DNA from: a virus
Taxonomy: Duplodnaviria > Caudoviricetes
Reading direction: 5' to 3' (one strand)
Length of the DNA: 28,898 nt
IMG/VR virus record: IMGVR_UViG_3300012663_000269
Span: 1 to 28,898 of that record
Positions 1,769 through 25,110 of this stretch are shown here, piece after piece. The position numbers were made by a program, and so were the translations under genes. Position 1 is the stretch's first letter, and the number at the start of each line of letters is the position of its first letter. The notes under the pieces were generated by a model. The model had not been told where the DNA came from. It searched no databases and saw only the letters and a list, made by a program, of their open reading frames with translations.

Positions 1769-3312
1769 ACCTCTTCTAATAAATTTTTATATAAATCTAC
1801 GACGCGTGAGTGGATGTCTATTTTTGCTTCAAGCATCGAGTACATACGCCGTTCTACGGGGGAGCCTTGCAAGTGCACAATAGTTACTGGGTTGCGTTGC
1901 CCTGCGCGATGTGGACGTGCGTTGCATTGCAAGTAAGTTTCTACTGACATGACGGGGGACCAATAGACTACTACATTAGCCGCCGTTAATGTAACCCCAT
2001 GTGACGCAGCTTGAGGTTGAATAATTAATATTTTTGGGTTAGCCTCTGTTTGGAATTTGGCAAATATCTCAGTGCGTTTGTTGACCGGCACCGCGCCGTT
2101 AATTACTTCGCAACTGTACCCAGACTTCCTAAGTTCCTCTGCCACTATTTGTATGGTGTGCTTATACGGAATAAACACAATAACTTTATGGCTTGCCTCA
2201 TCTATAACTTCTTTAAGTGCGGCAATACGGTTAGACGCATCAAACGCAATAGTCTCCCCACTATCCGAATACACCGCACCGCATGATAGTTGCAGTAGCT
2301 TGTTTAAGTTTGCCGCTGCGTTAACTGTTGTAATCTCTTCCCCTGCCGCAGTAGCTATCATATGCTTACGTATGATTTCGTAGAACTTCAACTGTTGTGC
2401 AGTGAGTGGGACTTCTCTAGTTACATAGGTCAACGCAGGTAAGTCTAAGCATTCTTCTTTTGTAAATCGTATAGCCGGCTGCAACACGTTATGCACCGTG
2501 ACCTCAGAGTCAGATTTAGGTGCCCACTTAAACGTGGTTACTTTCTTCATGACCAGATCGCGGAACGACCCAAAGAACTTAGGCACTCCCTTAGGGTTCA
2601 CAATCTTAGCTAACCCATACGCATCTGTAGGGGACTGTGACGCAGGTGTGCCTGTCAACATCCATACCCAAGTAGTCGGGCGGATTATTGCGTTGAGCAC
2701 CTTCCATCGTTTTGTAGCTACAGTTTTATACGCGTTAGCTTCATCTACAACTATTAGGTCAAACTCTTCTGCAATTACTGCATCTTTGATAATGTCCAGC
2801 CCATCAAAATTACATATGACAAACTCCGCCTCACTCTGCACCGCCTTAACCCGCTTGTCCCTAGAATAGCTATGGGCTATTGCTGTTGTGCGGTGCATAG
2901 CAAATCTAAATAGGTCGTTCTGCCACGCGGACTGCATGATCGACAACGGGCATAGGATTAGCACACGTTTAATAATCCCTAGCGACATCAAGTAATCTGC
3001 TGCCCATATAACGCTGCCGGTCTTACCTGTCCCCTGCTCGTTAAAACAGAACGCCCTACGGTGTAAGGTTAAGAACGCAGAAGTTGTTTTCTGATGCTCA
3101 AATGGTCGGTACATTCCCGGCCACTTGTAGTGCGCCAATATGGGGGATGGCACATTCTTGATACGTAAGTTTTTTAATACTTGCGCTTCTTCTAGCCCCC
3201 ACTTAACTAGCACCTCTCCAGAATCTAATATCTTGCTCTTGGGTATGATTTCTGTAATGCGTTGCGGCTCGCGTACTTTGATAAGTAGGGCTTTATTCTC
3301 TATGATCTGCAT
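1765..3312 (-). CDS. SNF2-family (SF2) helicase
   Basis: Walker A EQGTGKT, motif Ia ILCPLS, motif II VVDEAN, motif III LTGTP, motif V HGVTLTAA and motif VI QCNARPHRAGQ. Confidence 0.92.
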   Translation of the reverse strand: MQIIENKALLIKVREPQRITEIIPKSKILDSGEVLVKWGLEEAQVLKNLRIKNVPSPILAHYKWPGMYRPFEHQKTTSAFLTLHRRAFCFNEQGTGKTGSVIWAADYLMSLGIIKRVLILCPLSIMQSAWQNDLFRFAMHRTTAIAHSYSRDKRVKAVQSEAEFVICNFDGLDIIKDAVIAEEFDLIVVDEANAYKTVATKRWKVLNAIIRPTTWVWMLTGTPASQSPTDAYGLAKIVNPKGVPKFFGSFRDLVMKKVTTFKWAPKSDSEVTVHNVLQPAIRFTKEECLDLPALTYVTREVPLTAQQLKFYEIIRKHMIATAAGEEITTVNAAANLNKLLQLSCGAVYSDSGETIAFDASNRIAALKEVIDEASHKVIVFIPYKHTIQIVAEELRKSGYSCEVINGAVPVNKRTEIFAKFQTEANPKILIIQPQAASHGVTLTAANVVVYWSPVMSVETYLQCNARPHRAGQRNPVTIVHLQGSPVERRMYSMLEAKIDIHSRVVDLYKNLLEEV

Positions 3313-3526
3313 AATAAATTTTAATTATTTTTTTAATGGCCGAATCTCGGCTACGGTACTCTGACGTACACCCAACAGCGACTTTGTCTTTTAAGTCGTA
3401 CACAAACGCGCTGTAGTACGGTACGGGCTTATGGTTGTTTTTATAGTTACCATGAGACATTACTCGGTCTACTATTAACTTCCTACCCTCAATCGCTAGC
3501 AACGCAACAAATTCTTCTTCTTCCAT
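3293..3526 (-). CDS. Hypothetical protein
   Basis: ATG at 3526 follows GGAGAGGA; the ORF overlaps the helicase start. Confidence 0.6.
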   Translation of the reverse strand: MEEEEFVALLAIEGRKLIVDRVMSHGNYKNNHKPVPYYSAFVYDLKDKVAVGCTSEYRSRDSAIKKIIKIYYADHRE

Positions 3527-3543
3527 AATGTCCTCTCCAAAGC

Positions 3544-3690
3544 GTAAGCGGGCCAAAGTGAAGTTTTCACTTGGCCTTACGAGTATTACGGCACCTTACG
3601 GGTGCTATTCGGTTAGTTCTCTATCAGGGGAATCTACTACGGAAACTCGATAGCACTAACTGATACGGTTATCGCACTCGTACCTTGCGT
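3544..3690 (-). ncRNA. Candidate multi-stem structured RNA
   Basis: Nested pairings 3578-84/3676-82, 3612-17/3655-60 and 3621-25/3649-53, plus hairpins 3591-95/3601-05 and 3551-62/3566-76. Confidence 0.45.
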
Positions 3691-3695
3691 GACGA

Positions 3696-4010
3696 CTACT
3701 TCTTTTTCTTTTCGCGCTTACTTGTTTCTGAAACTAGGGCGCTAGTTGGGCTACGTTTAAATGAACGGTTCTTTGCGGCGCTCTCAATACGCACCCCATC
3801 TTTATTGGTACCACCTTTAGACAACGCCTTGACGTGAGCAACATCTTTACCTTCACGCTTATCCGCCCTGCCATTACCGTTCTTGTCTACGCTTACTTTG
3901 TCTATCTCACGGCGGGCACGTTGTCGTTCCATGCGGTCTGGTAGTTCCCCGCGTTTCTTTTCCATATCGTACTCGTGCTTGTACGGTCTAGGTGTCTTTG
4001 TATAGGGCAT
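3696..4010 (-). CDS. Small basic HNH-like protein
   Basis: DVAHVKALSKGG-x-N...S...NRS resembles the HNH beta-beta-alpha motif. Confidence 0.6.
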   Translation of the reverse strand: MPYTKTPRPYKHEYDMEKKRGELPDRMERQRARREIDKVSVDKNGNGRADKREGKDVAHVKALSKGGTNKDGVRIESAAKNRSFKRSPTSALVSETSKREKKKK

Positions 4011-4218
4011 AGTATTTACTCGCTTCGATCTCGTATTCTTTTACACCTAAAGAGAAGATTTTAAGTATAGCTTTGTTAGGATGGTCTTCTTTAAACCACT
4101 GTCGGGCAAAATCAATTTTTGGGGCAATGTACGACACCAACGCAACTTTCTTCTCAGGGTTTACTGCCTCTGTAAAAATCATCACGTTGTGCATGTACCG
4201 CTTAACGGTGTTTTCCAT
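3988..4218 (-). CDS. Hypothetical protein
   Basis: 76-aa ORF tiling between the nuclease genes, overlapping both. Confidence 0.55.
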   Translation of the reverse strand: MENTVKRYMHNVMIFTEAVNPEKKVALVSYIAPKIDFARQWFKEDHPNKAILKIFSLGVKEYEIEASKYYALYKDT

Positions 4219-8487: not shown

Positions 8488-9636
8488 TCATGCTATCTCC
8501 CTATGTAAGTCTTTTAGTTTTACGCCTGACTTGCTGTGTAGTATCTCCGCCAGTTGTGGTAAATGAAGATAACCTTCTCGCGCATCATCGTCATGAGTTT
8601 CAGCGGCGGCACTAAAGCGGCGAACATCCATGTGGTGTACTGGTGACGCAACACTGCAACTGAAACGGTTCCATGAAAACTTATTCTCCCCACGGACATG
8701 CTCAGATACAACGGAAATATTCCCACTAGAATTTTTGCGCTCATGCTCTTCAACTAAGTGGATGATGCGCTTTGTGTAGCCGTTCTCCGTTACCGTCTTT
8801 TCGCGGTTCTTAAAAAATGTTTTGGTATCTTTGGGGTCTACGTAAAAGATTGCGCGGTTCCCTTCGCGCTCAACCGTGGTTGACCACATAGCGCGTCTCG
8901 ACCCCCAAAGATTGAAGTGGTGAGCAACCATGCTAGTAACGACTGTGCTTTCATTGTTATCTTCGTCGCTAAAGTTCTTCCACGAAGATAGCTGCCACTC
9001 CTTCCTCATGTACGATGCTTTAGGGGTGTTTATCGGCGTGTGCGCAAGGTGATGTGTTGGAAAAACCTCGCTATCCTTTATAGATACATAAAAAGATACC
9101 CAGAATATTTTATTATCAGTCACATCACGGTAACCAAAACCGCAACGATAAATGGCTCCAGCCTTCTTTGCCACATACCACGGGCATTTTTTCTGTTTCA
9201 TTGCGAAAAAGAAGTCGGGGTGCATAACTTTTTCATTACCATTTACACCATCTGTGTGGGCTAAAAAAATTATTGTTGGTAACCCAACGCCCTCATTAAT
9301 CTGGCTGCTACAAATAACCTCATCAAGAAGATTGGGTATTACTGACACACCAAACTTCTTTAAACCTTCTACTTCTTTTTTATCCATAAAGCTCATTTGT
9401 TGGTAGTCAATCTTCATGGCGTCAAACGTATACTCAAGGTTATCTAAAAGATCGGATAGAGTCTTCGATCTTTCTTTGTTGTACTTGCGCTTGGGGGTAT
9501 TACCCTTGGGTTCTTTGACCTCTTCTTTGACCTCTTCTTTGACCTCTTCTTTGACCTCTTCTTTGACCAGCTCAATAGGCACCGGCTTTGCCCAAAGTGA
9601 CTTCAGCCAATCAATTATTTCCCTTATGCTGGTCAT
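8488..9636 (-). CDS. Hypothetical protein with N-terminal KEEV repeats
   Basis: 382-aa ORF with AAGGAG RBS and ATGA coupling. His/Arg motif H.VEEHER...V.EHVRG near the C-terminus. Confidence 0.75.
   Translation of the reverse strand: MTSIREIIDWLKSLWAKPVPIELVKEEVKEEVKEEVKEEVKEPKGNTPKRKYNKERSKTLSDLLDNLEYTFDAMKIDYQQMSFMDKKEVEGLKKFGVSVIPNLLDEVICSSQINEGVGLPTIIFLAHTDGVNGNEKVMHPDFFFAMKQKKCPWYVAKKAGAIYRCGFGYRDVTDNKIFWVSFYVSIKDSEVFPTHHLAHTPINTPKASYMRKEWQLSSWKNFSDEDNNESTVVTSMVAHHFNLWGSRRAMWSTTVEREGNRAIFYVDPKDTKTFFKNREKTVTENGYTKRIIHLVEEHERKNSSGNISVVSEHVRGENKFSWNRFSCSVASPVHHMDVRRFSAAAETHDDDAREGYLHLPQLAEILHSKSGVKLKDLHREIA
9511..9568. repeat. 12-bp tandem repeat (TTCTTTGACCTC) x4.8, in frame
   Basis: Perfect units start at 9511, 9523, 9535 and 9547, with a partial unit at 9559. 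Confidence 0.95.
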
Positions 9637-9866
9637 GTGTTCTTCTCCTTTAGCTTGGCTTCGATGGCATCTGCAAAGTCGCCGTATTGCGAACAGAAAT
9701 GCTCACGTCCTTCTACCGCCTCGTCCCACATCATTTCTTTCTCCGTCTCCGTCAGCCCCTGCCATTCGCGCTGCGTTTTAAGTAGTTCGTTTTCTTCGCG
9801 TAACTGACGTAGCGCAAAAAGCAAATCACTTTCTCGACTCCATGCAGCGATAGTGGGGTCAGTCAT
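9633..9866 (-). CDS. Hypothetical protein (REWQGLT...IEAKLKEKNT type)
   Basis: ATGA-coupled ORF; its C-half is paralogous to 10262..10537. Confidence 0.7.
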   Translation of the reverse strand: MTDPTIAAWSRESDLLFALRQLREENELLKTQREWQGLTETEKEMMWDEAVEGREHFCSQYGDFADAIEAKLKEKNT

Positions 9867-10269: not shown

Positions 10270-10537
10270 TGTTCTTCTCCTTTAGCTTGGCTTCGATGTC
10301 GTCATAAAATTCTCTTCCAGATAACGCGCCGTGAAAATGAAACTCTGCTATCTCTGCAAGTTCTTCTGCTGTCAGCCCCTGCCATTCGCGTTCAGGCCGC
10401 GCTAGTGCTGTGCGTAGTGCTTGTAGTGGTTTTGTTGATCGTCCCAATTCTTCGCTTGGTCTTGCACAATCAAGACAGGTTTTTTGCCATGATTCAAGCG
10501 CATCCAACGCCATCTGCATTACTTCTTTGTCAGTCAT
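10262..10537 (-). CDS. Hypothetical protein (REWQGLT...IEAKLKEKN type)
   Basis: ATG at 10537 overlaps the upstream TGA and follows GAGGG. Confidence 0.7.
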   Translation of the reverse strand: MTDKEVMQMALDALESWQKTCLDCARPSEELGRSTKPLQALRTALARPEREWQGLTAEELAEIAEFHFHGALSGREFYDDIEAKLKEKNSG

Positions 10538-11828: not shown

Positions 11829-12157
11829 CAGTCATCCTCCTCTATAAAGTAATTAGGCACTCGCGCTCTACGATCTTCCGCAGCGCGGCGCAGTTCTATC
11901 TTCTTGTTTTTTATTTCTGCTTGTAGCTTCCTTACTTCTACTGCATCTGGTGCTGTGTACAACCCTTTATCATCTGGTGTAGGTATGGGCTTGCGCTTAG
12001 TCGTCTGGTTATGAGCACCCGCACCCGGTGTACTAACCTCATACTCCATAGTTGCAAAATGCCTACCGCAATCTAAACATTTCCGCCTACGCATTGGGCC
12101 TTCAGGTTTCTGAACAGTGCTCTTCACATTACTGTTCCCCCCACAAGTACATTTCAT
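11828..12157 (-). CDS. NrdR-like zinc-ribbon protein (no ATP cone)
   Basis: MKCTCG...V..T...RRRKCLDCGRHFATME. Confidence 0.7.
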   Translation of the reverse strand: MKCTCGGNSNVKSTVQKPEGPMRRRKCLDCGRHFATMEYEVSTPGAGAHNQTTKRKPIPTPDDKGLYTAPDAVEVRKLQAEIKNKKIELRRAAEDRRARVPNYFIEEDD

Positions 12158-12360
12158 TGTATCTCTCCATAATCGTAATAGATATAAAACACGTTCCTTA
12201 GTTTTCTTTGCCCGACTGTCGGTATAGATTTACCTATGTCGCACATGCGTAGAAACGCTATCTTCTCAAGTATTTGGTCGTCATGGATAGGGCTCTCCAT
12301 CTTACCTAGCATAGTGAACTCTACCCTGACAACTGTACCGTTTAACGCCTTAGTTACCAT
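12154..12360 (-). CDS. Hypothetical protein, similar to C-terminus of 12409..13197
   Basis: KIAFLRMCDIG..I..VG.R versus KLALLRMVDVG..I..VG.R; GGGAG RBS. Confidence 0.65.
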   Translation of the reverse strand: MVTKALNGTVVRVEFTMLGKMESPIHDDQILEKIAFLRMCDIGKSIPTVGQRKLRNVFYIYYDYGEIQ

Positions 12361-12408: not shown

Positions 12409-13197
12409 TCAAACAGGGGGTTCCATAAGTTCATACAATGTAAACTCTGTATCGGTATGGCGCATCCCAACCTCGTCAATATTAGCGCCGACATCAACCA
12501 TGCGCAACAATGCCAACTTGCTTTGTTGTTCCATAGTTAACTCTACCCCGCCAGTTTCAATCTCTCCGTTCGACGTAATCATTACCCCAACACGCTCAAC
12601 TTTTGTGTTCCGTCTACGTACTGCTTCCTCGTAAATAGGGCATGCTTGATCTACAAACTCCCGTATGGTTGGGGAAGTAAAAACTACCCCATTCTTTTGT
12701 AGCTGACTAAGCTCTGCGACTAAATCCCTTGCAGATACAGATCGGTGCATTCTGTTGACGTTATCTTGCAGTTCGCTACTCCAGTTGTATAAAGCTCTAT
12801 CTATGTCCCGTTTGTGGTCGGCCATTATTTCCGCAAAGCTAAACGGCTTTACGTAAGTAAGCATCAGCTTCAACGCCTTACGCATGTCCTTAGTCTCCGA
12901 TGTGTGGTACTCACTATTACCCGCATTGAACTTCTCATTCTTAATACGGCGTGCCCATATAGAAAACTTATGTTCTTGTGACCTCCTTCCTGCTAAATAC
13001 CATTTGACCGCTGCAACGTGTGGCTTGCTCGGGTGCTTAGCATCAAAGAACTTAACCGCGCTACACACGCCTGTGTTTTCATTCCTATCTGCATAAGTTG
13101 ATTCATACTTAACTATCAGCTCAGCGCGGTTGTGTAGGTCGAACTGCTTGATTAGCTCGCGCAGATTAGGGTTTATCTTATCGTGTTCAATAACCAT
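12409..13197 (-). CDS. Hypothetical early protein
   Basis: True start at 13197 after GGAGAATAAA; the longer track ORF runs through the palindrome. Confidence 0.75.
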   Translation of the reverse strand: MVIEHDKINPNLRELIKQFDLHNRAELIVKYESTYADRNENTGVCSAVKFFDAKHPSKPHVAAVKWYLAGRRSQEHKFSIWARRIKNEKFNAGNSEYHTSETKDMRKALKLMLTYVKPFSFAEIMADHKRDIDRALYNWSSELQDNVNRMHRSVSARDLVAELSQLQKNGVVFTSPTIREFVDQACPIYEEAVRRRNTKVERVGVMITSNGEIETGGVELTMEQQSKLALLRMVDVGANIDEVGMRHTDTEFTLYELMEPPV

Positions 13198-13218
13198 TTT
13201 ATTCTCCAAGTAAGTAGT

Positions 13219-13242
13219 AAACTTCACGTCGACATGAAGTTT
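13219..13242. repeat. 24-bp palindrome copy 1
   Basis: AAACTTCACGTCGACATGAAGTTT. Confidence 0.95.
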
Positions 13243-14116
13243 AGAAATCGAAAGATTTGAGAATCTCATCGACGCGTTTCTTTACATCAATCCGCACGTG
13301 GTCGTTCTCTCTAAGTTCTTTAGGTGACACATCTACAATCGCCCGCTCTAATTCCTGACGCGCCCGCTCAAGCTCAGGGTCATCAGTCACATTAAGTTTA
13401 GTCAGCAGTCCACACAACTCAACTGCGTTCTCTACTAAAGAGTCGCGGAACACTTGCACCTTAACTTCGGTGCCGTCCTTCAGTACGCGTGGCGATTCCG
13501 CATCACTAAGTTTTACACTCATGTGGGTGAGTGTCGTGTGGAGACGCTCCCAAATATCTTTCACTGCGGCGCTCATCTTCGTATTGAAGTGCTTCTCATA
13601 CTGATCTTTCAGCTCAGTCATGGCCGCATCAGTTGCTTCGATACGGAAGTCGTTAACTTCTGGGACGGGCATAAACACATAGCCGAATTTAAACTTACGT
13701 TCGACGTTCTCAGCGTCAGGATATTCCCCGCGATCAAACAAATCGCCAAGCTGAAACGCCGCCGCCGATACCAGTGTTGGGTACTCCGCTATAAACTCAG
13801 AGACCACACGTGTAAACTTCTGCTCATAGTTATTGAGGATGCGCTTGTACTCAAAGAAGTTCTTCATAGGCAACAAGCGGCTACCACTATCCGACCAAGG
13901 CAGTGTCTGCTCGTAATGCCACACGCGTACAGCGTTGACGATCTTCTGTACTTCATCCAACTTAGCGGTGCCTGCAAGCAGGTGCTTATGGTAGTTGCCA
14001 CCCTTAGCCCGTGTACCCTTGCTCACATCAATCTCATCAGATACTTTCTTGTCCATCTTGCGACCTGTCCATGCACTGATATTCAACTCTACTAACATTG
14101 CGCTGTTCTGAATCAT
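13241..14116 (-). CDS. DUF3150-like helical early protein
   Basis: LVELNISAW.G.K.D, TLPWSDSG.RLLP, LGDLFD..EYP and LN.T.DP.L patterns. ATG at 14116 follows GGAGAATAAA. Confidence 0.6.
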   Translation of the reverse strand: MIQNSAMLVELNISAWTGRKMDKKVSDEIDVSKGTRAKGGNYHKHLLAGTAKLDEVQKIVNAVRVWHYEQTLPWSDSGSRLLPMKNFFEYKRILNNYEQKFTRVVSEFIAEYPTLVSAAAFQLGDLFDRGEYPDAENVERKFKFGYVFMPVPEVNDFRIEATDAAMTELKDQYEKHFNTKMSAAVKDIWERLHTTLTHMSVKLSDAESPRVLKDGTEVKVQVFRDSLVENAVELCGLLTKLNVTDDPELERARQELERAIVDVSPKELRENDHVRIDVKKRVDEILKSFDF

Positions 14117-14141
14117 TTTATTCTCCAAGTAAGTAAGTAGT

Positions 14142-14165
14142 AAACTTCACGTCGACGGGAAGTTT
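14142..14165. repeat. 24-bp palindrome copy 2
   Basis: AAACTTCACGTCGACGGGAAGTTT. Confidence 0.93.
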
Positions 14166-14332
14166 TGCCAACCGTTTAATAGTTTTGATAACGCTACTGC
14201 TTCTTCCATGCTTAGCTCTTGCCCTGTTAGTAACTCGCAACTAGGCAAGGCTGTCCACGCTTCTAAGTCACGGGCTGGTACATGCCCATTGTAAGTAGTC
14301 TTAACTACAAAGTATCTAAGTTCCTCCTTCAT
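14147..14332 (-). CDS. Hypothetical protein
   Basis: ATG at 14332 follows GGAGA; the stop codon lies inside palindrome 2. Confidence 0.55.
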   Translation of the reverse strand: MKEELRYFVVKTTYNGHVPARDLEAWTALPSCELLTGQELSMEEAVALSKLLNGWQNFPST

Positions 14333-14516
14333 AACTTCTCCCATTAAGTACTACACACATAGCCTCGGCCTCTTCGTGTGTCATATTGCTAGCGACTATG
14401 TCAAGGTTAGAGTACCGCTCTCTCATGGGGGGGATACATGCGTAGTACTTAGCATGTAAGCTAGTTGCTTCACGTATCCACCCCCTATTCAGAACACTGT
14501 AGTTAGTCTCCGACAT
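14316..14516 (-). CDS. Hypothetical protein
   Basis: 66 aa; shares M..EEA.A...LNG with its downstream neighbour. Confidence 0.55.
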   Translation of the reverse strand: MSETNYSVLNRGWIREATSLHAKYYACIPPMRERYSNLDIVASNMTHEEAEAMCVVLNGRSYEGGT

Positions 14517-15702
14517 ACACTGACACGCCTACACTAGCGGTGATGCGCTTAGTTGTAATGCCCCACAGCACAGGCGCAGTCCAATCAGTACCCCATCCAT
14601 TCACATACCCGTCCGTCAAGACGATCACACACTCAGGCTTCATCCCATGCTCCTTGATGTAAGTAGGAATACATTGTGGGTCAGTACCTCCACCCCCCTT
14701 AGGCTTAGTCGATTGCAGTAAGCCCTCATACGTACCTTGCTCATACTTCTCGTGCTGACATACCTCTGTGTCCCAATACAGCAAGTCAATACCTTCAGGC
14801 GTCACGCTGTTGCATATGTTAATAAGCTCGCCAAGAAACTGTCCGACCTCTGCCGACCCGATAGACCCTGACATGTCAATAGCCACAGCAATGCGCCCAA
14901 CACTCTCGCCTACTAAAGACGGCAAGTAAGTGCCACTGTCCACCCACCGTCTGTTCGGCTTACGCCACGTCGATATATCTTTCTCCGCACAGTAAGATGT
15001 TATGTATTCACGCAGTGCATCACGCCAGTTAACCTTGGCCTCGAGTAAGTCAGACACATCACGCGGCACGTTACCTTTCATCTTGCCTGCTAGTAAGGCA
15101 CCTTGTCTCAAGGCTTGGTCAATCTCTCGCTCAAGGGAACCTTTCTCTTCGGCGCTGAGCTCTTTTGCCCCTTTCCAATCATGCTCGTCGAATCCCCCTT
15201 CACCTTCCTCGCCTTCGCCTGCTTCTCCATTACCATTACCTTGTTCATCACCATCCTCTTGCTTTTGTTTGAGTAAGCGGAATACTGTACCCGCATCCAT
15301 GCCACGATACTGCTCGTCGTACAGCCCACCCTCAGGTAACTTAACTTCCTTGCCGTCCCTGTCAGAGTCCACGATCATCAGGTTGATGACGTAGTCACAC
15401 GCTTGGTTCGCAAGTTTAGGGTTGTCCTGCCACAGATGTTCCCACACAGTCATGTGCCGAAACGCTTTGTGTAAGTTCTCGTGCAGTATCAAACCCTTCA
15501 GCTCTTTGTCGTTGATCTTGTTGACAAACTTACGCCCATAGAACGTATCGCGCCCATTGGTTGCCGCAGTCGGCAGGTCATCACGTACCTCAGTCCTACC
15601 CATCATGATGATGCCCGCATACAGGCAGTAGTTCGGATTGTTCATTAGCGCGACGTGTGATTTCTGTACGCGCTGCTCTGCTGTTAAACTTAATGTCGAC
15701 AT
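14503..15702 (-). CDS. DUF2201-like HExxH metallopeptidase + VWA domain protein
   Basis: TAATNG, HENLH, DYVIN, an acidic Gly linker, MIDAS DMSGS, GGGT and LTDG. Confidence 0.88.
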   Translation of the reverse strand: MSTLSLTAEQRVQKSHVALMNNPNYCLYAGIIMMGRTEVRDDLPTAATNGRDTFYGRKFVNKINDKELKGLILHENLHKAFRHMTVWEHLWQDNPKLANQACDYVINLMIVDSDRDGKEVKLPEGGLYDEQYRGMDAGTVFRLLKQKQEDGDEQGNGNGEAGEGEEGEGGFDEHDWKGAKELSAEEKGSLEREIDQALRQGALLAGKMKGNVPRDVSDLLEAKVNWRDALREYITSYCAEKDISTWRKPNRRWVDSGTYLPSLVGESVGRIAVAIDMSGSIGSAEVGQFLGELINICNSVTPEGIDLLYWDTEVCQHEKYEQGTYEGLLQSTKPKGGGGTDPQCIPTYIKEHGMKPECVIVLTDGYVNGWGTDWTAPVLWGITTKRITASVGVSVYVGD

Positions 15703-15709
15703 GAAGTTT
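15686..15709. repeat. 24-bp palindrome copy 3 (covers VWA start codon)
   Basis: AAACTTAATGTCGACATGAAGTTT. Confidence 0.92.
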
Positions 15710-15717
15710 CTCCCTTA

Positions 15718-16821
15718 TTAGAACAACCATTGGTTAGACATAGCCCAGTTTTTGAACTCTCTGTTACTCACAGCCATCGCTTGCTTAGTCTCTGACTTGA
15801 CTACGCTACGTGCAAACAACGCCTGCCATTCCTTCTCCATACGCTCTGCGTACTGCAACCACTTGCTCATGCTGTCCTTGTCAACACGAGTGATAGCACT
15901 GAACACGAGTATGCACTTGGCGATAGTGTCCTCTGGCAACTTGGCTGTCGTTGGGCTGTTGATGATCGACTCCCACGTAGGCAACTTGTCTACCACTGTA
16001 AAGAAAGACTGCATATCCCGCGCCGCACTCTCACCGATAGTCCCCGCCAACATAGCGATAGTCAACGCGTCGCCCAACACAGCACGTTTCTTAGCGATGT
16101 GGCTCGCCTTCTCAAGACTACGCGGCGTAACAAACGCACTCTGTCCTGCACGTGTAGGGTTGAAGATGTACGGGTTATCTTTCTGACTGCTGTCGCGGTA
16201 GCTTGCAAGCGCATGTGGAAACTGCCGTACCCATGCAATAACTTCTGGTGCGATGTCGTTACCCAAAGCCCATGCGCCCCACGAGTCGTCGCTGATAGTG
16301 CCGTCAGCATTGAAGCCCGCCTCAGGTTTACCCACAGTCACCAAACACACACGATTTCTAGCGTGTGCCTCAAGCATGTCACCCACACCATCACTAGCTA
16401 GGTTAGTTGTACCGAACACTCTGCTACCTGCCGGTAAGTTAACGTCACCGATGCGATGCTCGTTCATCAACGTAAGCAATACATTCTTCACGGACTTGAT
16501 AGCCTTGCCGATCTCGTCAAGCATGATGATGACGGGCTTACCCTCGTGCATACGGAACCTAGCATTAGGGGCAAAGCGTGTTACCCGCATGTCGTTCTCT
16601 ACCACTGTGTACGGTAATGCAAAGTCGCCTAGGTCAAGCAGTGTGCAGTCGATATAGGCAATTGCATGGTCAGGGAACAACTTGCTCAGATACTTGAGTG
16701 CCGCTGACTTGCCGATGCCCGGCTCGCCTTCCCCGATGATGGTCACGTCGTCGCCTGATGTGGCAATAGCTTTGTTGAACTGCTTAAGTGTGATGCTGCT
16801 GCCGAAATTAATAGCTGCCAT
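15718..16821 (-). CDS. MoxR/AAA_5-like AAA+ ATPase
   Basis: Walker A GEPGIGKS, Walker B MLDE, sensor N (GTTN), Arg finger RNR and TPRS. ATG at 16821. Confidence 0.9.
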   Translation of the reverse strand: MAAINFGSSITLKQFNKAIATSGDDVTIIGEGEPGIGKSAALKYLSKLFPDHAIAYIDCTLLDLGDFALPYTVVENDMRVTRFAPNARFRMHEGKPVIIMLDEIGKAIKSVKNVLLTLMNEHRIGDVNLPAGSRVFGTTNLASDGVGDMLEAHARNRVCLVTVGKPEAGFNADGTISDDSWGAWALGNDIAPEVIAWVRQFPHALASYRDSSQKDNPYIFNPTRAGQSAFVTPRSLEKASHIAKKRAVLGDALTIAMLAGTIGESAARDMQSFFTVVDKLPTWESIINSPTTAKLPEDTIAKCILVFSAITRVDKDSMSKWLQYAERMEKEWQALFARSVVKSETKQAMAVSNREFKNWAMSNQWLF

Positions 16822-16849
16822 TTTATTCTCCAAGTTAATTAAGTTTGTT

Positions 16850-16873
16850 ATTCTTCACGTCGACGTGAAGTTT
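16850..16873. repeat. 24-bp palindrome copy 4
   Basis: ATTCTTCACGTCGACGTGAAGTTT. Confidence 0.93.
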
Positions 16874-16875
16874 GA

Positions 16876-17823
16876 TTACTGCACATTATTTACACATCTA
16901 CCTGCTGCTACCTCGCGTGTCGTAAACACACTAGGGTCTTCCTTAAGCGCCTTATCTATCAAGTTATCTATAGCTGTGACGCTGTACCGCATATCGCGTA
17001 TTACTACCCCTCTGGTATGCCCACCTGCATCGACGACATCAACATCCCCAACTATCTTGTTGGATATATTGTTACACCATTGCAGCATCGCTAAAAACAA
17101 ACGCATGTTGTCGTCCTCATTAGTGATGCCCACTAAGTCTCGTCGCTCATGCATCACATCAACGGCCAGCTTGAGCAGTAACTCGGCGTTACCTACTCTC
17201 TTAAACATATCAAACTCCTCGCCAGTACTTAACGTAAACACATAAGCCCTCCGCGAATAGCTATCCTTAATCTCCCCAAAGGCGCGCATTGTCTCGGCCT
17301 GTATCCATCCATCTGTCATCGTCAACCACGCCCGACAGAAGTTCTTAAACGGTATTAGCACTTTACGCTTAGCCTTGATAGCCTTGCGGTCTACTATCTC
17401 CTGCACCATAGGCTGCGGGTCAATCACTTCCCACTCACCCTCCACCATATGCAGCCGCAGCGACCCAGTTACCGGCACTAAGTAATCTCTACCTCCCTTC
17501 AGCATTACCCACAACCTATCGTACCGCTTGAAACAGCCGATACCCTGTGGCGTCCACCGCCAGATAAACTCAGCCGTCGTCGGCGTCGACCACTGCTCGC
17601 ACTTAATAGCTACGGTGCCATCCACGTGATACGTGACAACATCTGTCTGATACAACCTCGCAGCATAGGCAGTGTACGTAGCCTCCCCGTCGATGACGGT
17701 ACGCTTGACGATAGTTTCCCAATCCCTACTCCGCTTACCAATTGGCCGCACTTCAACTGCTCGCCCCCTGATTGGCACAACCCTCTCAAACTGTTCTTGC
17801 ATGTACTCATATCTAATTGTCAT
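16876..17823 (-). CDS. Hypothetical early protein
   Basis: ATG at 17823 follows AAGGAG; long ORF. Confidence 0.78.
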   Translation of the reverse strand: MTIRYEYMQEQFERVVPIRGRAVEVRPIGKRSRDWETIVKRTVIDGEATYTAYAARLYQTDVVTYHVDGTVAIKCEQWSTPTTAEFIWRWTPQGIGCFKRYDRLWVMLKGGRDYLVPVTGSLRLHMVEGEWEVIDPQPMVQEIVDRKAIKAKRKVLIPFKNFCRAWLTMTDGWIQAETMRAFGEIKDSYSRRAYVFTLSTGEEFDMFKRVGNAELLLKLAVDVMHERRDLVGITNEDDNMRLFLAMLQWCNNISNKIVGDVDVVDAGGHTRGVVIRDMRYSVTAIDNLIDKALKEDPSVFTTREVAAGRCVNNVQ

Positions 17824-17838
17824 TTCAATTCTCCTTTG

Positions 17839-17862
17839 ATTCTTCACGTTGACGTGAAGTTT
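17839..17862. repeat. 24-bp palindrome copy 5
   Basis: ATTCTTCACGTTGACGTGAAGTTT. Confidence 0.92.
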
Positions 17863-17868
17863 GGTTGG

Positions 17869-17970
17869 TCATACAACGCCTAAAAACACTACTAATAAGA
17901 ACAGCAACGCAGCTAGGCACACACCAAGCAACGCGCCAAGCACAAACTTCCATATCTCTAACTCGTCCAT
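17869..17970 (-). CDS. 33-aa single-pass membrane peptide (absent from ORF track)
   Basis: MDELEIWKFVLGALLGVCLAALLFLLVVFLGVV*, with a GGGGAG RBS and TAATG coupling. Confidence 0.7.
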   Translation of the reverse strand: MDELEIWKFVLGALLGVCLAALLFLLVVFLGVV

Positions 17971-18164
17971 TATGTTTTCTCCCCGTCCTGCACCCAGAGC
18001 AGCGCGTTATATATGACAGCCATCAACGCATCAACCTCGTCCTCTAACTGCTCTTCCGGCCAATTCTCGAATGGCTCCCAAGGTGTGTAGTCGTCCACGT
18101 CAGCATAAAAGTGCGCTTCGGCAATTGCTTGGGCGTATGCTTCCATCTCGTGTTTAGTTCTCAT
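17970..18164 (-). CDS. Small acidic protein
   Basis: 64 aa with 16 D/E against 3 K/R; AAGGAG RBS. Confidence 0.72.
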   Translation of the reverse strand: MRTKHEMEAYAQAIAEAHFYADVDDYTPWEPFENWPEEQLEDEVDALMAVIYNALLWVQDGEKT

Positions 18165-18379
18165 TTCATTTCTCCTTGTATAACTTCATCACTTACTTCC
18201 CGTATCCAATCGACACGGATATTGTCGACATACAGCCACATGTTTAGCCGCCTGCTGTCGGTTAGATGCAATGGGTAGGTAACCAATAACTTGTCACCCC
18301 TCTCGTTCACCTTGTCCAATCGCACGATCTCAGCCTTGTCCGGCTGTCTGCGCTTGTTGTAATACTTCATGATTCTCAT
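18161..18379 (-). CDS. Hypothetical protein
   Basis: GAGGA RBS; ATGA coupling at both ends. Confidence 0.7.
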   Translation of the reverse strand: MRIMKYYNKRRQPDKAEIVRLDKVNERGDKLLVTYPLHLTDSRRLNMWLYVDNIRVDWIREVSDEVIQGEMK

Positions 18380-18630
18380 GTCGTCCTCTTCGGGTTAGTG
18401 CCGATTAGGTCGGCTGCGTCGTATATGTACTGATAGGCTCCCTTGCTGTAGGGAATCTGCACCATCGATGCTTTTTGCTTGGACTCGGCTTTCGCTGCGT
18501 CCTCGCCGCACCATAAGCACAGTTTGTATCCTAGTGCTGCACGTTTAGGGTCGATGTGATCCCCGCACACTACGCACAGGAATCGGCTGTCTTCCAATAC
18601 TTCATACGTAAACTTCTTTACACGTCCCAT
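18376..18630 (-). CDS. DksA/TraR-type C4 zinc-finger protein
   Basis: CVVCGDHIDPKRAALGYKLCLWC. ATG at 18630 follows GAGAGGA. Confidence 0.72.
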   Translation of the reverse strand: MGRVKKFTYEVLEDSRFLCVVCGDHIDPKRAALGYKLCLWCGEDAAKAESKQKASMVQIPYSKGAYQYIYDAADLIGTNPKRTT

Positions 18631-18648
18631 ATAGTCCTCTCTGTTGTG

Positions 18649-18672
18649 AAACTTCACATCGACATGAAGTTT
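18649..18672. repeat. 24-bp palindrome copy 6
   Basis: AAACTTCACATCGACATGAAGTTT. Confidence 0.93.
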
Positions 18673-18726
18673 GGTTGGTGTTGCTTGGTTTGGCACTCAT
18701 TACCCGTTTTTTCATCCTACAACCAT

Positions 18727-18755
18727 ATTGTACCATACTTATTGACAGTTGTCAA
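18727..18755 (-). promoter_or_regulatory. Strong sigma70-type early promoter
   Basis: TTGACA-N17-TACAAT with an extended -10 TGn. Confidence 0.85.
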
Positions 18756-18793
18756 TAGGACAGGGGGTCTTTCGGTATAGGCAGCTTTTGGGC

Positions 18794-18817
18794 AAACTTC
18801 ATGTCGATGTGAAGTTT
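18794..18817. repeat. 24-bp palindrome copy 7 (exact reverse complement of copy 6)
   Basis: AAACTTCATGTCGATGTGAAGTTT. Confidence 0.93.
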
Positions 18818-19236
18818 TGGAGGCTTTTGTGCTGCGCGACACGTCACAACAAGTTATTTCTGTGTTGGATTATGTTTGGATTATTGAGCACACGTGACAA
18901 GGAAGTGTCAGGTGATGGTGTAGCTGTTTTTGCGATGTTGTATTGGCAATTGTTCCGCAAAAGGGCTATTTGTTCCGTAATGTTCCGTGGCCGGCGACAA
19001 AGGTGATCCCTAGGGGGACAACGGGTTTGAGGCATGTTCTGTCATTTTGTTCAGTGTTCCGTGGTTATATACGTGTCTGGGCAAAAATGGAGAAAAATTA
19101 GTGGAAAACGAAAAAACTTGGCAGAGGGCTCGGCCGGGCTGAGGAAATTAAAATTTTGCCGTCTGTTGTGTTTTAAACGCGGAACATTGGAACAATTAAC
19201 AATATATTAATATAATTTATTTAAAAAACTCTTTAG

Positions 19237-19249
19237 AATCAACAACTTA
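19237..19249 (+). promoter_or_regulatory. IHF consensus site
   Basis: AATCAACAACTTA matches WATCAA-N4-TTR, with an AT tract upstream. Confidence 0.6.
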
Positions 19250-19314
19250 GGTGCATTAGTTGTCAAAATGTACAAGGAACAATTGGCGGAACAACAACTA
19301 ATTTTATTCAATGA

Positions 19315-19327
19315 AATCAATGACTTA
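19315..19327 (+). promoter_or_regulatory. IHF consensus site
   Basis: AATCAATGACTTA matches WATCAA-N4-TTR, with an AT tract upstream. Confidence 0.6.
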
Positions 19328-19451
19328 GCAAAAGCGTTGGCGGAACAATAACGGAACAATTGACATTCCGATAAGTAATGGGCTTGGCCTCTCCCATTGT
19401 GCGAGAACTGGCATCACTGGTATCGTTTTTTGGGCTGCTATTGCGCGTTGC

Positions 19452-19475
19452 AAACTTCATGTCGACATGAAAAAT
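19452..19475. repeat. 24-bp palindrome copy 8
   Basis: AAACTTCATGTCGACATGAAAAAT. Confidence 0.9.
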
Positions 19476-19482
19476 GAGGGCG

Positions 19483-19505
19483 AAAAAAAGCCCGCCGAAG
19501 CGGGC
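19483..19505 (-). terminator. Intrinsic terminator
   Basis: GCCCGC-TTCG-GCGGGC followed by T7 on the minus strand, downstream of the 196-aa gene. Confidence 0.92.
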
Positions 19506-19528
19506 ATTGTGAAACATGTTTTGCTGTG

Positions 19529-20119
19529 TTACTCGGCTGCGTCTGCGTCAACTTCCTCAAGGTATCCCGCTGCGTCGATCGCGTCGATTAAAAACGCTGC
19601 GAGTGATGTCAATTCGTCATTGTCGCTTTCCTTCATTTTATTAAATGCTTTGAGGAACTTAGCCGCTGCTTTCGCGCCATCGTCGCCGGATGCAATTGCC
19701 ACCATGATATTACCCGTCGATTCACCTTTGGCCTTTGCTTTGCGGTTCGCGTTAAGGTCGAATTTTTTCCCGTCATTCACGCAGGCGCGGATTGCGCTCA
19801 GGATATTGTTAGCGGTTCCATCTGCGTATTCGTCGCTTTTTAACTGTACGTAAATTGCCTGCGCCAGCGCGCAAGTCCGGCGTGACTTGCCAAGTGTACG
19901 CTTTGCTGCGCGTAGTGTCTTACAGTCCGCGTTAATCTTATCCATCAAGGACGTGACTTCAGTTAATGACTTTTCATAAGACTTGACAGCGGCGGCAATG
20001 CCTACCGCTAAAGATAACGCGCCATCATCCGACAGCGTGATTGTCGCTGCGCTTGGCGCTTTGGTTGCTGCTTTATTTGCTTTGAGCGAGGTTGCGGCTT
20101 TGTTGGCTTTTGTAGTCAT
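19529..20119 (-). CDS. Stand-alone Ala/Lys-rich helical protein of unknown function
   Basis: 196 aa with an AGGAA RBS and its own promoter and terminator. Confidence 0.82.
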   Translation of the reverse strand: MTTKANKAATSLKANKAATKAPSAATITLSDDGALSLAVGIAAAVKSYEKSLTEVTSLMDKINADCKTLRAAKRTLGKSRRTCALAQAIYVQLKSDEYADGTANNILSAIRACVNDGKKFDLNANRKAKAKGESTGNIMVAIASGDDGAKAAAKFLKAFNKMKESDNDELTSLAAFLIDAIDAAGYLEEVDADAAE

Positions 20120-20173
20120 GATAGTAATTTCCTATTAAGTTATGAACCGCCGAATTGCGAGTCCATGTAAAGA

Positions 20174-20201
20174 ATTATACCAGATTATTGACGGTTGTCA
20201 A
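20174..20201 (-). promoter_or_regulatory. Consensus sigma70-type promoter
   Basis: TTGACA-N16-TATAAT with an extended -10 TGn. Confidence 0.85.
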
Positions 20202-20223
20202 CTATCACGTCGACGTGAAGTTT
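20200..20223. repeat. 24-bp palindrome copy 9 (overlaps the -35 by 2 bp)
   Basis: AACTATCACGTCGACGTGAAGTTT. Confidence 0.88.
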
Positions 20224-20419
20224 TGGCCGGATTCGCTACCCCACCGTCCCCCCACCACCCCGAAACAGTTTAGGAGTCCCGTCCGTATCTCCCTAGGTTT
20301 TGCACAGTATCTAGCAAAAATCTCAATTATACTTGACAGTTGTAAAGACCCCCCACCCCCTTGCTTTTTCCAGAACACATGGCTATACTTCTTCACAGCA
20401 AAACACCCCCCTTGCATTT

Positions 20420-22560: not shown

Positions 22561-25110
22561 ATGGCTATTGAGAAAAGTTTGTACCAAGCCCCCATAGGCT
22601 TGGACTCGTTGGGCGCAGAGCCCGACATTGAGATTGAGATCGAGGACCCTGAGTCTGTACGCATCGGCATGGGGGACATCGAGATTGAGATCGAGAAGGG
22701 TAAGGAAGCAGATAGCTTTGATGACAACCTTGCAGAGTATATCGACGACGATGTGCTATCTAGTTTGGCGGCTGACTTAATAAGTGAGTTTGACGAAGAC
22801 ATTAGCTCACGCAAAGATTGGATGCAGACTTATGTAGACGGGCTTGATTTGTTGGGTATGAAGATTGAAGAGCGGGCGGAACCGTGGGAAGGCGCATGCG
22901 GTGTGTATCACCCGCTGTTGTCCGAGGCTTTGGTTAAGTTCCAAGCTGAGACGATCATGGAGACGTTCCCGGCGGCTGGTCCTGTTAAGACTCAGATCAT
23001 TGGTAAAGATACTCCTGAGAAAGCCGAAGCTGCGATTCGTGTGCGTGACGACATGAACTATCAGTTGACCGAGAAGATGGTTGAGTATCGTCCTGAGCAT
23101 GAGCGTATGTTGTGGGGCTTGGGCTTGTCCGGTAATGCGTTCAAGAAGGTGTACTTCGACCCAAGCTTAAATAGGCAAGTGTCTATCTTCGTGCCGGCTG
23201 AAGATTTGGTAGTACCGTATGGCGCTAGTAATTTAGAGACCGCTGAGCGTGTAACCCACGTGATGCGTAAAAGCGAGAATGAGCTACGTAAGCTACAAGT
23301 AGCGGGCTTCTACCGTGATGTCGATATGGAAGAGCCGACTAACACGATGGACGAGGTAGAGAAAAAGATCGCGGAGAAGATGGGCTTCCGCGCTACCACT
23401 GACGACCGCTATAAACTTCTTGAAATGCAAGTGTTCCTTGACCTAGAAGGGTTTGAGGACCGAGACGAGGACGACGAAGAGACCGGCATAGCACTGCCAT
23501 ACATTGTCACTATTGAGAAGGGTACACAAACAGTTTTGGCTATCCGCCGGAATTGGCATCCTGAGCCAGATAGGGACGAGAAGAAAGAACCAGAGATCGC
23601 CCCTAACGTCGTGCTTAAAGAGAAGCGCAGTCACTTCGTGCACTACGGGTACATCCCGGGCTTTGGCTTTTATTGTTTTGGTCTAATCCACCTGTTAGGT
23701 GCGTTTGCTAAGTCGGGTACATCCATACTTCGTCAGTTGGTTGACGCTGGTACGTTGGCTAACCTGCCGGGCGGCCTTAAGTCTAAAGGCATGCGTGTTA
23801 AGGGTGACGACACACCGATTAGTCCGGGTGAGTTCCGTGATGTGGACGTAGCTTCTGGCACGATCCGCGACAACATTCTACCTCTGCCATATAAAGAGCC
23901 AAGCCAAGTTTTACTTGCTCTGATGAATCAAATTGTAGAAGAAGGCCGTCGCTTTGCTTCTGCTGCCGATATGAAGGTATCGGATATGTCGGCTAACTCC
24001 CCAGTTGGTACGACGCTGGCAATTTTAGAGCGCACGCTAAAAGTAATGTCTGCGGTACAAGCCCGTATTCACTACTCGATGAAACAAGAGTTCCGGTTGT
24101 TGCGCGACATTATTCGTGACTACACTCCTGAGAGCTATACCTACGAGCCAGAAGAAGGCAGTCCTAAAGCTAAGCGGTCAGACTATGACATGGTGGAGGT
24201 CATCCCTGTCAGTGACCCTAACGCAGCAACGATGTCGCAGAAGGTTGTGCAGTATCAAGCAGTAATGCAGATGGCGCAGCAGGCTCCGCAGATTTATGAC
24301 CTGCCGGAATTGCATCGTCAGATGTTAGAAGTACTTGGTATTAAAAACATTGGCAAGCTCGTTCCTACTGAGGACGACGAGAAGCCTAAAGACCCCATCA
24401 GCGAGAACATGGCTATGCTTTCTGGCAAGCCTCTCAAAGCCTTTATCTATCAAGATCAGGAAGCGCATATCACTGCGCACATGGCTTTCTTGCAAGACCC
24501 AGCTACTGCTCAAATGATTGGTCAAAACCCAATGGCACAGCAGATGGCGGCATCTATGCAAGCACACGTAGCAGAACACTTTGGCTTTCTCTATCGACAA
24601 AAGATTGAGCAAGAACTTGGTGGCCCGTTGCCTAAGCCGGGTGAAGAAATGCCTGAAGAAGTTGAATTGCAAGTTTCTCGTTTGGTCGCCAAGGCTGCAA
24701 CACAGCTAACGCAGAAGAACCAGCAGCAAGCCGCTCAACAGCAGGCACAGCAACAACAGCAAGACCCAATCATCCAGATGCAAATGCAGGAACTTCAAAT
24801 CAAGGCGAAGGAAGCTGATACAAAAGATCAGAAGGCCCAAGCAGACGCTGCGCTCAGAACCGCACAACTTGAGTTGGAGAAAGAACGCATTGCTTCTACG
24901 GAACGTATCGTTGCCGCACAGATTGCTTCCAAAGAAGAGATCGAAGGCGCAAAGATTGGTGTTGATGTTGGCAAGCAGAAAGATGATCGCGAGCGTTTTG
25001 AGTTACAGCAAGAAGCTCAAGGTATCCAAATGGGTATGCAAATGGGTGAGAAGCTATTTGGGCAAAAACCAAAAGGCTCTTCCAATAAACCAGAACCAGA
25101 AGGTGAATGA
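22561..25110 (+). CDS. Portal protein with long Gln-rich C-terminal coiled coil
   Basis: 849 aa directly after TerL; G.AFKKVY motif and a Q-rich helical tail of the P22-barrel type. Confidence 0.85.
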   Translation: MAIEKSLYQAPIGLDSLGAEPDIEIEIEDPESVRIGMGDIEIEIEKGKEADSFDDNLAEYIDDDVLSSLAADLISEFDEDISSRKDWMQTYVDGLDLLGMKIEERAEPWEGACGVYHPLLSEALVKFQAETIMETFPAAGPVKTQIIGKDTPEKAEAAIRVRDDMNYQLTEKMVEYRPEHERMLWGLGLSGNAFKKVYFDPSLNRQVSIFVPAEDLVVPYGASNLETAERVTHVMRKSENELRKLQVAGFYRDVDMEEPTNTMDEVEKKIAEKMGFRATTDDRYKLLEMQVFLDLEGFEDRDEDDEETGIALPYIVTIEKGTQTVLAIRRNWHPEPDRDEKKEPEIAPNVVLKEKRSHFVHYGYIPGFGFYCFGLIHLLGAFAKSGTSILRQLVDAGTLANLPGGLKSKGMRVKGDDTPISPGEFRDVDVASGTIRDNILPLPYKEPSQVLLALMNQIVEEGRRFASAADMKVSDMSANSPVGTTLAILERTLKVMSAVQARIHYSMKQEFRLLRDIIRDYTPESYTYEPEEGSPKAKRSDYDMVEVIPVSDPNAATMSQKVVQYQAVMQMAQQAPQIYDLPELHRQMLEVLGIKNIGKLVPTEDDEKPKDPISENMAMLSGKPLKAFIYQDQEAHITAHMAFLQDPATAQMIGQNPMAQQMAASMQAHVAEHFGFLYRQKIEQELGGPLPKPGEEMPEEVELQVSRLVAKAATQLTQKNQQQAAQQQAQQQQQDPIIQMQMQELQIKAKEADTKDQKAQADAALRTAQLELEKERIASTERIVAAQIASKEEIEGAKIGVDVGKQKDDRERFELQQEAQGIQMGMQMGEKLFGQKPKGSSNKPEPEGE

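Follow-up and report, generated by a model that had tools for sequence, protein, structure and literature searches.

What are nine near-identical palindromes doing in the early region of a tailed phage, and which protein reads them? The question is raised by IMG/VR record IMGVR_UViG_3300012663_000269, positions 1 to 28,898, here called the window (the whole stretch of DNA that was analysed, 28.9 kb), where a 24-bp palindrome recurs between positions 13219 and 20223. The copies form a real phage-encoded cis-element array. The 196-amino acid (aa) product of the first early gene, referred to as gp1, very probably binds them, judging from natural recombinants in which the N-terminal domain of gp1 and the sites change together.

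A pattern search of the window confirmed the nine copies listed in an earlier note on this DNA, with 0-3 mismatches to AAACTTCAYGTCGACRTGAAGTTT; the pattern had 0 matches in 100 dinucleotide shuffles. Using a symmetric position weight matrix (PWM) the nine copies scored 31.6-40.4 bits, and the next-best position in the 28.9 kb scored 6.3 bits. The claim that no further full copy lies outside the early region therefore holds within the window, and is extended to the genome only via relatives. The copies are as follows, P2 being a predicted early promoter.

13219..13242, copy 1: overlaps the DUF3150 stop codon, 18 nt before the ATG at 13200
14142..14165, copy 2: overlaps a stop codon, 22 nt before the DUF3150 ATG
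15686..15709, copy 3: covers the ATG of the VWA gene (15702)
16850..16873, copy 4: 28 nt before the AAA ATPase ATG
17839..17862, copy 5: 15 nt before the ATG of a ~316-aa gene, whose start was taken at the Shine-Dalgarno (SD)-linked ATG 17823
18649..18672, copy 6: in the P2 5' leader, 15 nt before the ATG of the zinc-finger gene
18794..18817, copy 7: 38 nt upstream of the P2 -35 (18755), exact inverse of copy 6
19452..19475, copy 8: begins 14 nt after the gp1 terminator stem (19505-19490)
20200..20223, copy 9: overlaps the gp1 promoter -35 (20201) by 2 nt, outside the transcript from that promoter

The distances to start codons, the VWA ATG, both -35 elements, the terminator and the stop codons agree with those first reported. 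Successive copies are 923, 1544, 1164, 989, 810, 145, 658 and 748 nt apart. Five end 15, 15, 18, 22 and 28 nt before an ATG on the minus (mRNA) strand, with a GGAG/GAGG SD sequence between each copy and its ATG, while the inverse pair 6 and 7, separated by 145 bp, brackets P2. The inner arms vary mostly at three positions, the CG dinucleotides of the ideal palindrome, where TG or CA stands instead; tolerance or methyl-C deamination could account for this. A near-identical 25-nt translation-start block is present in three early genes (13192-13216, 14111-14135 and 16816-16840), which suggests copying of units comprising a site plus a ribosome binding site.

Are such arrays found in relatives? 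Related loci (L numbers) were found through the AAA gene (n=80), and 54/80 contained a palindrome family of at least three copies. The largest family in 40 Markov controls had a size of 1 in 39 controls and 2 in the remaining one. The families of relatives differ in sequence (ATACTGTCNGACAGTAT, TTATTAACANNTGTTAATAA, GTAAACCACGGTTTAC, CGACANNNTGTCG and others) yet occupy the same junctions, and at least 17 motif classes, assigned by hand, occur among similar phages. The comparison with relatives suggested in the earlier note thus returned different palindromes at the same junctions, along with a gene domain that co-varies with them, the gp1 N-terminal domain. In 10 whole or near-whole genomes (G numbers) high-scoring copies lie within ~11 kb upstream of terS; the exceptions are two copies in G004 (14.2 and 18.4 kb) and two of intermediate score (15 and 14 bits) in G010. 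Among 193 loci the window PWM found several copies (at least 20 bits) only in L081/L108, which are one contig. This contig has the gp1 closest to that of the window (54% identity), though its early DNA otherwise does not align. Parts of two other phages, HTVC023P (1-24000) and DSL-LC04 (6000-32000), contained no such palindrome family.

The evidence for the reader comes from natural recombinants. By blastn L140 matches L082 and L089 at 96% and 92% over 1-2485, and at 90.5% and 90% over 2818-4200. The gap in these alignments comprises gp1 codons ~5-115, where L140 has a version of the L115/L119 type. All 3 visible sites have switched as well, from AAACTTCACACWGTGTGAAGTTT in L082/L089 to the L115/L119 motif TTACTGTCAGACAGTAA in L140; at site 2 the change is an exact 25-nt block replacement, with only 3 other differences in the preceding 236 nt. 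The same is seen in L123/L126 and in L084/L090, where DNA is shared at 89-92%, sites are replaced in place and the gp1 proteins belong to different clades. Because the visible sites change exactly with the swap of the gp1 N-domain, gp1 is likely to be the protein that binds them. On the simplest interpretation, gene flow is resisted by sites and N-domain as a unit because the two must match, and we propose that they evolve as a locked pair, which would generate many specificity types among otherwise similar phages. The domain-level swap of gp1 coupled to a site switch is newly found here.

Pairwise identities point the same way. With motif classes set by hand, pairs of phages with different motifs reached maximal identities of 99% for terS and terL, 96% for AAA, 93% for VWA, 89% for PolA, 86% for Hjc and 82% for DUF3150. 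The maximum for gp1 was 58%, and that pair was the L140 chimera. The first gene occurs as four families, each with its own motif group; profile-profile comparison of 4/6 family pairs (A2-A3, A2-A4, A3-A4 and A3-A5) detected no similarity. Within the family of the window's gp1 (41 sequences) the motif is identical at 54% gp1 identity (L081), the same AAACTTCA arms are found at 46-48%, AAACTT arms at 39-42%, and more distant motifs at ~30%. Phages with terS 68-74% identical but a diverged gp1 have other motifs. A gp1 clade of 7 (97/99) contains all three motif types with AAACTT outer arms, and this clade is split in the terS and terL trees.

The earlier note had named the 196-aa protein and five helix-turn-helix (HTH) proteins as candidate binders. 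The former is now the best supported by the recombinants and a predicted homodimer, which together also argue for its broader idea of dedicated cis-elements for a dimeric phage protein. The HTH proteins fared poorly: an 81-aa HTH protein has 75-77% identical counterparts in three relatives, each of which carries a palindrome of its own, unlike that of the window, and tblastn did not find the other four in most complete relatives.

What kind of protein would gp1 be? AlphaFold2 with 41 sequences predicted an all-helical protein with a mean pLDDT of 70, rising to 82-86 over residues 61-120. A long helix (31-71) is followed by a helix pair (84-95/100-116), a K/A-rich linker and a C-terminal domain (136-186). 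The homodimer model reached a score of 0.74, whereas the best of three controls had 0.00; its pLDDT was 81-82 and its contact agreement at least 94%. The mark used was reached by 20/30 solved homodimers and 1/23 monomers, counts that are only roughly valid for the gp1 alignment, and gp1 is therefore predicted to form a homodimer. In this model helix 31-71 pairs antiparallel, and a second patch lies at 136-186. The helix pair is the putative recognition helix region (T102/N105/R111); residues 106 and 110 of helix 100-116 are in the predicted interface, and R111 is nearly invariant. The C-terminal domain is a candidate ribbon-helix-helix from its sequence pattern.

Column 105 of gp1 was the best of 156 for the base 5' of the inner GT (p 2e-5). 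Residue 105 is N in 12/13 rows with a pyrimidine at that base and in 0/9 with a purine, where it is V, Q, M, T or F. Contacts of Asn with adenine and of hydrophobic residues with thymine would fit this pattern. The 22 rows were hand-picked and are related and the base was chosen post hoc, and we treat the residue-base link as a lead.

Known families offered little help with gp1. It had no Pfam or PHROGs match, its best E value in a PDB sequence search was 0.049, and Foldseek with an 11-sequence model gave 0 matches to the PDB at E<=0.001. The best BFVD match was an uncharacterised phage protein (E 0.02). A wide fold search with the full-length model, in which other parts were barely tested, returned only long-helix and chorismate-mutase-like matches (Z<=6.0). 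In a protein atlas only unnamed viral clusters scored above 0.9, and the L5-type repressor family PF25746 was listed at 0.78-0.79, which is chance level. Helix 100-116 was considered as an integrase core-binding domain, but this lead found no confirmation: fold searches had no such match, and Phage_int_SAM_4 gave one weak match (E 0.11) in 1/11 sequences.

The map of the early arm is as follows.

19529..20119, minus strand: gp1, the 196-aa first early gene, monocistronic, the putative palindrome reader
20174..20201, minus strand: P1, the gp1 promoter, a perfect sigma-70 consensus (TTGACA-16-TATAAT) with TG extension, 12/12, from a consensus scan only
19483..19505, minus strand: hairpin plus T run 3' of gp1, resembling an intrinsic terminator
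18727..18755, minus strand: P2, the early operon promoter, TTGACA-17-TACAAT, 11/12, flanked by copies 7 and 6
12409..18633, minus strand: early operon, interspersed with palindrome sites
18818..19451: non-coding spacer between copies 7 and 8, with 4 TGTTCC then 6 GGAACA converging on a 90% A+T stretch near 19188

The operon encodes a DksA-like zinc finger, small ORFs, the 316-aa protein, an AAA/MoxR-type ATPase, a VWA-metallopeptidase (DUF2201), DUF3150 and a 263-aa protein. The array spans from the gp1 promoter over the spacer, which looks origin-like from its sequence, and P2 to the gene after DUF3150. L082 and L140 have a spacer of the same layout with TGTTCT/AGAACA repeats. In a scan of the window strong promoters were found only beside copies 6/7 and copy 9.

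It is marginally probable that a gp1 homodimer binds the nine palindromes as operators and represses the early operon; taking binding as given, repression is the somewhat probable effect. In such a scheme host sigma-70 polymerase would transcribe gp1 first and alone, from its perfect promoter to its own terminator. Accumulating gp1 would fill the sites of the AAA-VWA-DUF3150 arm, those near P2 as well as those in 5' leaders and between genes, with the N-terminal helical domain of gp1 reading each half-site. Bound gp1 would dampen initiation and block elongating polymerase, giving the early genes a pulse followed by shut-off. By hand count, 25 of the 41 loci examined contain a site in the leader of a consensus promoter, its centre 59-101 nt downstream of the position where the -35 begins.

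Several observations weigh against gp1 as a repressor reading these sites. 26/80 AAA loci gave fewer than three copies (many are short or have short AT-rich motifs), and L059/L062 have a different first gene and lack the array. A partial Mantel test was applied to 30 phages (A6-family loci with at least 2 sites, terS, terL and a distinct gp1; L145 was dropped for a spurious motif), and whole gp1 gave a partial rho of 0.004 (959/2000 permutations) while terS gave 0.16 (23/2000). Only helix 99-116 of gp1 gave a distinct signal (rho 0.38, partial 0.28); for the C-terminal part the value was negative. The weak result for whole gp1 is explained by the recombinants, which couple the sites to the N-domain and not to the rest of gp1. 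The 263-aa gene (12409-13200) reaches at most 32% identity between motif classes and separates these as well as gp1 does (area under the curve (AUC) 0.993 vs 0.994); it lies past the end of the L140 contig and remains a candidate reader. The site by the gp1 promoter is found at variable distances, 10-32 nt upstream of the -35 start, and keeps no fixed phase; this speaks against activation by contact and leaves autorepression, or a classical operator, weakly supported. An activator model is accordingly unlikely. Finally, sites in leaders and junctions may just be where 24 bp fit without damage to genes.

Alternatively gp1 could be architectural, as MatP is on matS. With one predicted dimer surface at 31-122, another at 136-186 and a flexible linker between them, it would bridge sites so that the early arm and the origin-like spacer are looped or coated, and so protect or position first-entering DNA or license replication. 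We consider this unlikely, although the dimer model has two separate interface patches, copies 7 and 8 bracket the spacer, and sites show no helical phasing to promoters. The arm also adjoins terS and a conserved G-rich element, maybe a genome end, and a cultured phage discussed below, MinM2, has 37 copies of its own palindrome genome-wide, densest in the early arm. However, the many sites placed 59-101 nt downstream of strong promoters, and the one over a start codon, are as expected for repression, and 6-13 sites could cover only a small part of the DNA. Of the two roles named in the earlier note, roadblock silencing and coating of first-entering DNA, the sequence is compatible with either.

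The G-rich element lies at ~20235-20285, between the gp1 promoter and terS, and reads GGTCCCAT/GGACTCCT then G runs on the minus strand. A loose pattern of it matches 79/99 loci, and it may be a genome end or a signal for packaging. The two strong -35 hexamers each form an arm of a second palindrome, TTGAC-N4-GTCAA, found in only these two places (18742-18755 and 20188-20201) with a looser copy at 20333; this is possibly the site of a second regulator or a divergent -35. In L082 (~3880-3960) and L140 (~3755-3830) the leader site after P2 is inside a longer inverted repeat (CCACGGG..CCCGTGG vs CCGGTG..CACCGG), a possible sign of a separate RNA stem.

It is rather improbable that gp1 serves true immunity, as the repressor of a carrier or plasmid-like state without integrase, in which resident gp1 would block superinfection by the same type and so drive diversification of specificity. 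The monocistronic gp1 gene with its own promoter and terminator would suit such a role, as would the at least 17 hand-assigned motif classes among similar phages, which recall the immunity types of Cluster A phages in PMC6550527. On the other hand, tyrosine integrase (PF00589), serine resolvase (PF00239) and ParA (PF13614) were each over cut-off in 0/18 relatives, the window itself being a genome fragment. The best capsid match in plasmid records has only 44% identity, and the gp1 promoter is of maximal strength instead of the weak maintenance type.

A still smaller likelihood is assigned to another phage protein, either that of the 263-aa gene or terS, being the reader while gp1 just travels with the sites. 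The AUC of the former and the partial Mantel value of the latter, the best obtained, speak for it. Against it, terS is 98-99% identical in pairs with different motifs, and an internal domain swap in gp1 would have no reason to coincide with all sites. The 263-aa family is absent from the complete genome G011, and the 316-aa and zinc-finger families are absent from the complete G001 and G002.

There is slight probability that the copies serve as recombination points for the exchange of gene cassettes, in the manner of the PeSL elements of T4-like phages. Homology breakpoints between relatives are indeed enriched at sites: 40/153 unique breakpoints lie within 30 nt of a site, where 6.7% are expected by length. 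Counted per SD-start, breakpoints are ~2x as frequent where the start has a site nearby (32 over 4.9 per locus) as where it has none (37 over 12.0 per locus), though gene boundaries confound the enrichment. But no site-specific recombinase was found in 18 relatives, sites are replaced whole with no hybrids left, no site-to-site deletion was seen among the 15 joints shown of 32, and the coupling to the gp1 domain would be left unexplained. The cassette-exchange suggestion gains indirect support at most, as a by-product: the breakpoint enrichment agrees with shuffling of cassettes as a side effect.

Function as mRNA hairpins for processing or translational control is barely credible, since 433 unique sites from 64 loci (loci with at least 4 sites were taken) show no bias to G-U among broken arm pairs on the mRNA strand (G-U 57, A-C 39, other mismatches 145) or beside SD-starts (G-U 18 vs A-C 15, p 0.73), only 7 compensated pairs and no Rfam match, 50 lie directly upstream of the first gene, gp1, and the window's copy there, upstream of the -35, falls outside the predicted gp1 transcript, even though 172/433 sites lie within 45 nt of an SD-plus-start and two window asymmetries pair as G-U. 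These two are in copies 1 and 6, as the earlier note had it; the asymmetry in copy 7 is A-C, and copies 2, 3, 4, 8 and 9 have non-wobble mismatches.

A host operator or a repetitive extragenic palindromic (REP)-type repeat was also considered and set aside. In 185,579 bacterial species, each represented by one genome, exact matches to a degenerate 22-mer were limited to 2 stretches with a single copy apiece; the earlier note had recognised no matching host operator. The pattern is not multi-copy in these genomes, though degenerate host sites are possible. The exact 24-mer pattern occurred in 0 of the IMG/VR contigs searched.

Which phages carry such arrays? The phage is uncultured and of a lake type; the window is a fragment of a genome type of ~65 kb, complete relatives having 63-69 kb. 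By Pfam and PHROGs searches the plus strand encodes the terminase large subunit, portal, GroES and capsid, and an ORF at 20473 is taken as terS from its position. The minus strand encodes PolA, an SNF2 helicase, a PD-(D/E)XK nuclease, several HTH proteins, DUF3150, the VWA-metallopeptidase and the AAA ATPase. The closest cultured phages by capsid are MinM2/Pag-Yong1/Pra-JY27 (72%) and HTVC023P (65%), and contigs from four sequencing runs match most of the window at 85-100%, revealing neither genome ends nor expression.

The genome is mosaic, with a backbone nearest G001-G003 (terL 81-83%, SNF2 82-84%). AAA/VWA, in region 12409-17823, is nearest G004-G009 (70-74% vs 42-47%). These imported genes bear the window's own palindrome motif. 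Elsewhere, a 12-nt tandem repeat at 9511-9570 encodes (KEEV)n, small ORFs end in a common DAIEAKLKEKN tail (9638-9680 and 10270-10312), and a 68-aa ORF at 12154-12360 is similar by eye to the C-terminus of the 263-aa protein (L..LRM.D.G..I..VG).

Multi-operator arrays with co-evolving repressors are known in temperate phages. Symmetric arrays of the Cluster O type, in integrase-less phages, stayed unexplained because no binder had been identified. The natural recombinants described here point to a binder and map specificity to one ~110-residue domain of a protein without a known family, in an abundant, uncultured phage group with at least 17 candidate protein-site pairs. They raise two questions, namely how early shut-off is timed and why an internal regulator would diversify its specificity (phage-phage interference). 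We tentatively suggest that in a large group of integrase-free aquatic podovirus-like phages the first gene encodes a hitherto undescribed, modular DNA-binding family whose swappable N-domain and array form self/non-self groups, and which times early shut-off and silences co-infecting genomes of the same type. Such a family would confer immunity in the absence of genes for lysogeny, and would amount to a natural collection of 24-bp binders, reprogrammable and with a readable residue-base code.

How does the array compare with known systems? MatP/matS is a host chromosomal system with palindromes dispersed in one genome domain and a dimeric helical binder with a second oligomerisation surface. 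Unlike matS sites, the palindromes here are far denser and lie at gene starts, and searches found no sequence or fold match to gp1.

The cultured Synechococcus phage MinM2/Pag-Yong1/Pra-JY27 (OQ594354.1), with its 72% identical capsid, has a MoxR-VWA-DUF3150 early arm. Its palindrome, GGTTCAGNCTGAACC, has one of its copies just upstream of MM2_92, the first gene, which encodes an Ala-rich protein of 187 aa. Homology of MM2_92 to gp1 was not demonstrable, the best E value in a one-sequence search being 0.002. MM2_92 (L190 29909-30472) has an apparent paralog, MM2_72 (22980-23819), in the same arm. Literature searches, mostly outside subscription journals, gave no account of the array, of the protein or of the MinM2 palindrome.

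PeSLs are described in PMC4122927 as composite terminator/promoter elements, repeated and intergenic, in the hyperplastic early region of T4-like phages. The palindromes share with them a repeated intergenic placement near homology breakpoints; they differ in being neither terminator nor promoter and in switching together with a protein domain.

The 17-bp palindrome TGTTCGGNNNCCGAACA of Cluster O mycobacteriophages is present in 34 copies genome-wide, a third of them inside genes, and is invariant among five phages. According to PMC4351075, these phages have no integrase, the palindrome is enriched in intergenic gaps of a leftward operon and is absent from the host, a dimer site is proposed, the binder is not identified and recombination between copies is occasional. 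The array described here is likewise a symmetric phage-specific repeat in phages where no integrase was found, and differs in its sequence, its restriction to the early arm, its lineage specificity and its tie to one gene domain.

Cluster A stoperators, according to PMC6550527, are 13-bp asymmetric sites that follow the direction of transcription; a genome has up to ~30 of them, and their reader is an HTH repressor. The phages are temperate, with integrase or parABS, and the motif differs between relatives in correlation with repressor distance. Shared with the L5 type are many sites for one putative phage repressor across the early/replication arm, a repressor gene with its own promoter, and a motif that diverges together with its putative reader. 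In contrast, the sites here are symmetric, of 23-25 bp, in ~5-14 copies, with copies 6/7 exact inverses; no integrase or ParA was found in 18 relatives, and Pfam, PHROGs, PDB sequence and fold searches gave no match of gp1 to the HTH repressor. The array looks most like the Cluster O palindrome, and would work most like the operator/stoperator arrays of Cluster A.

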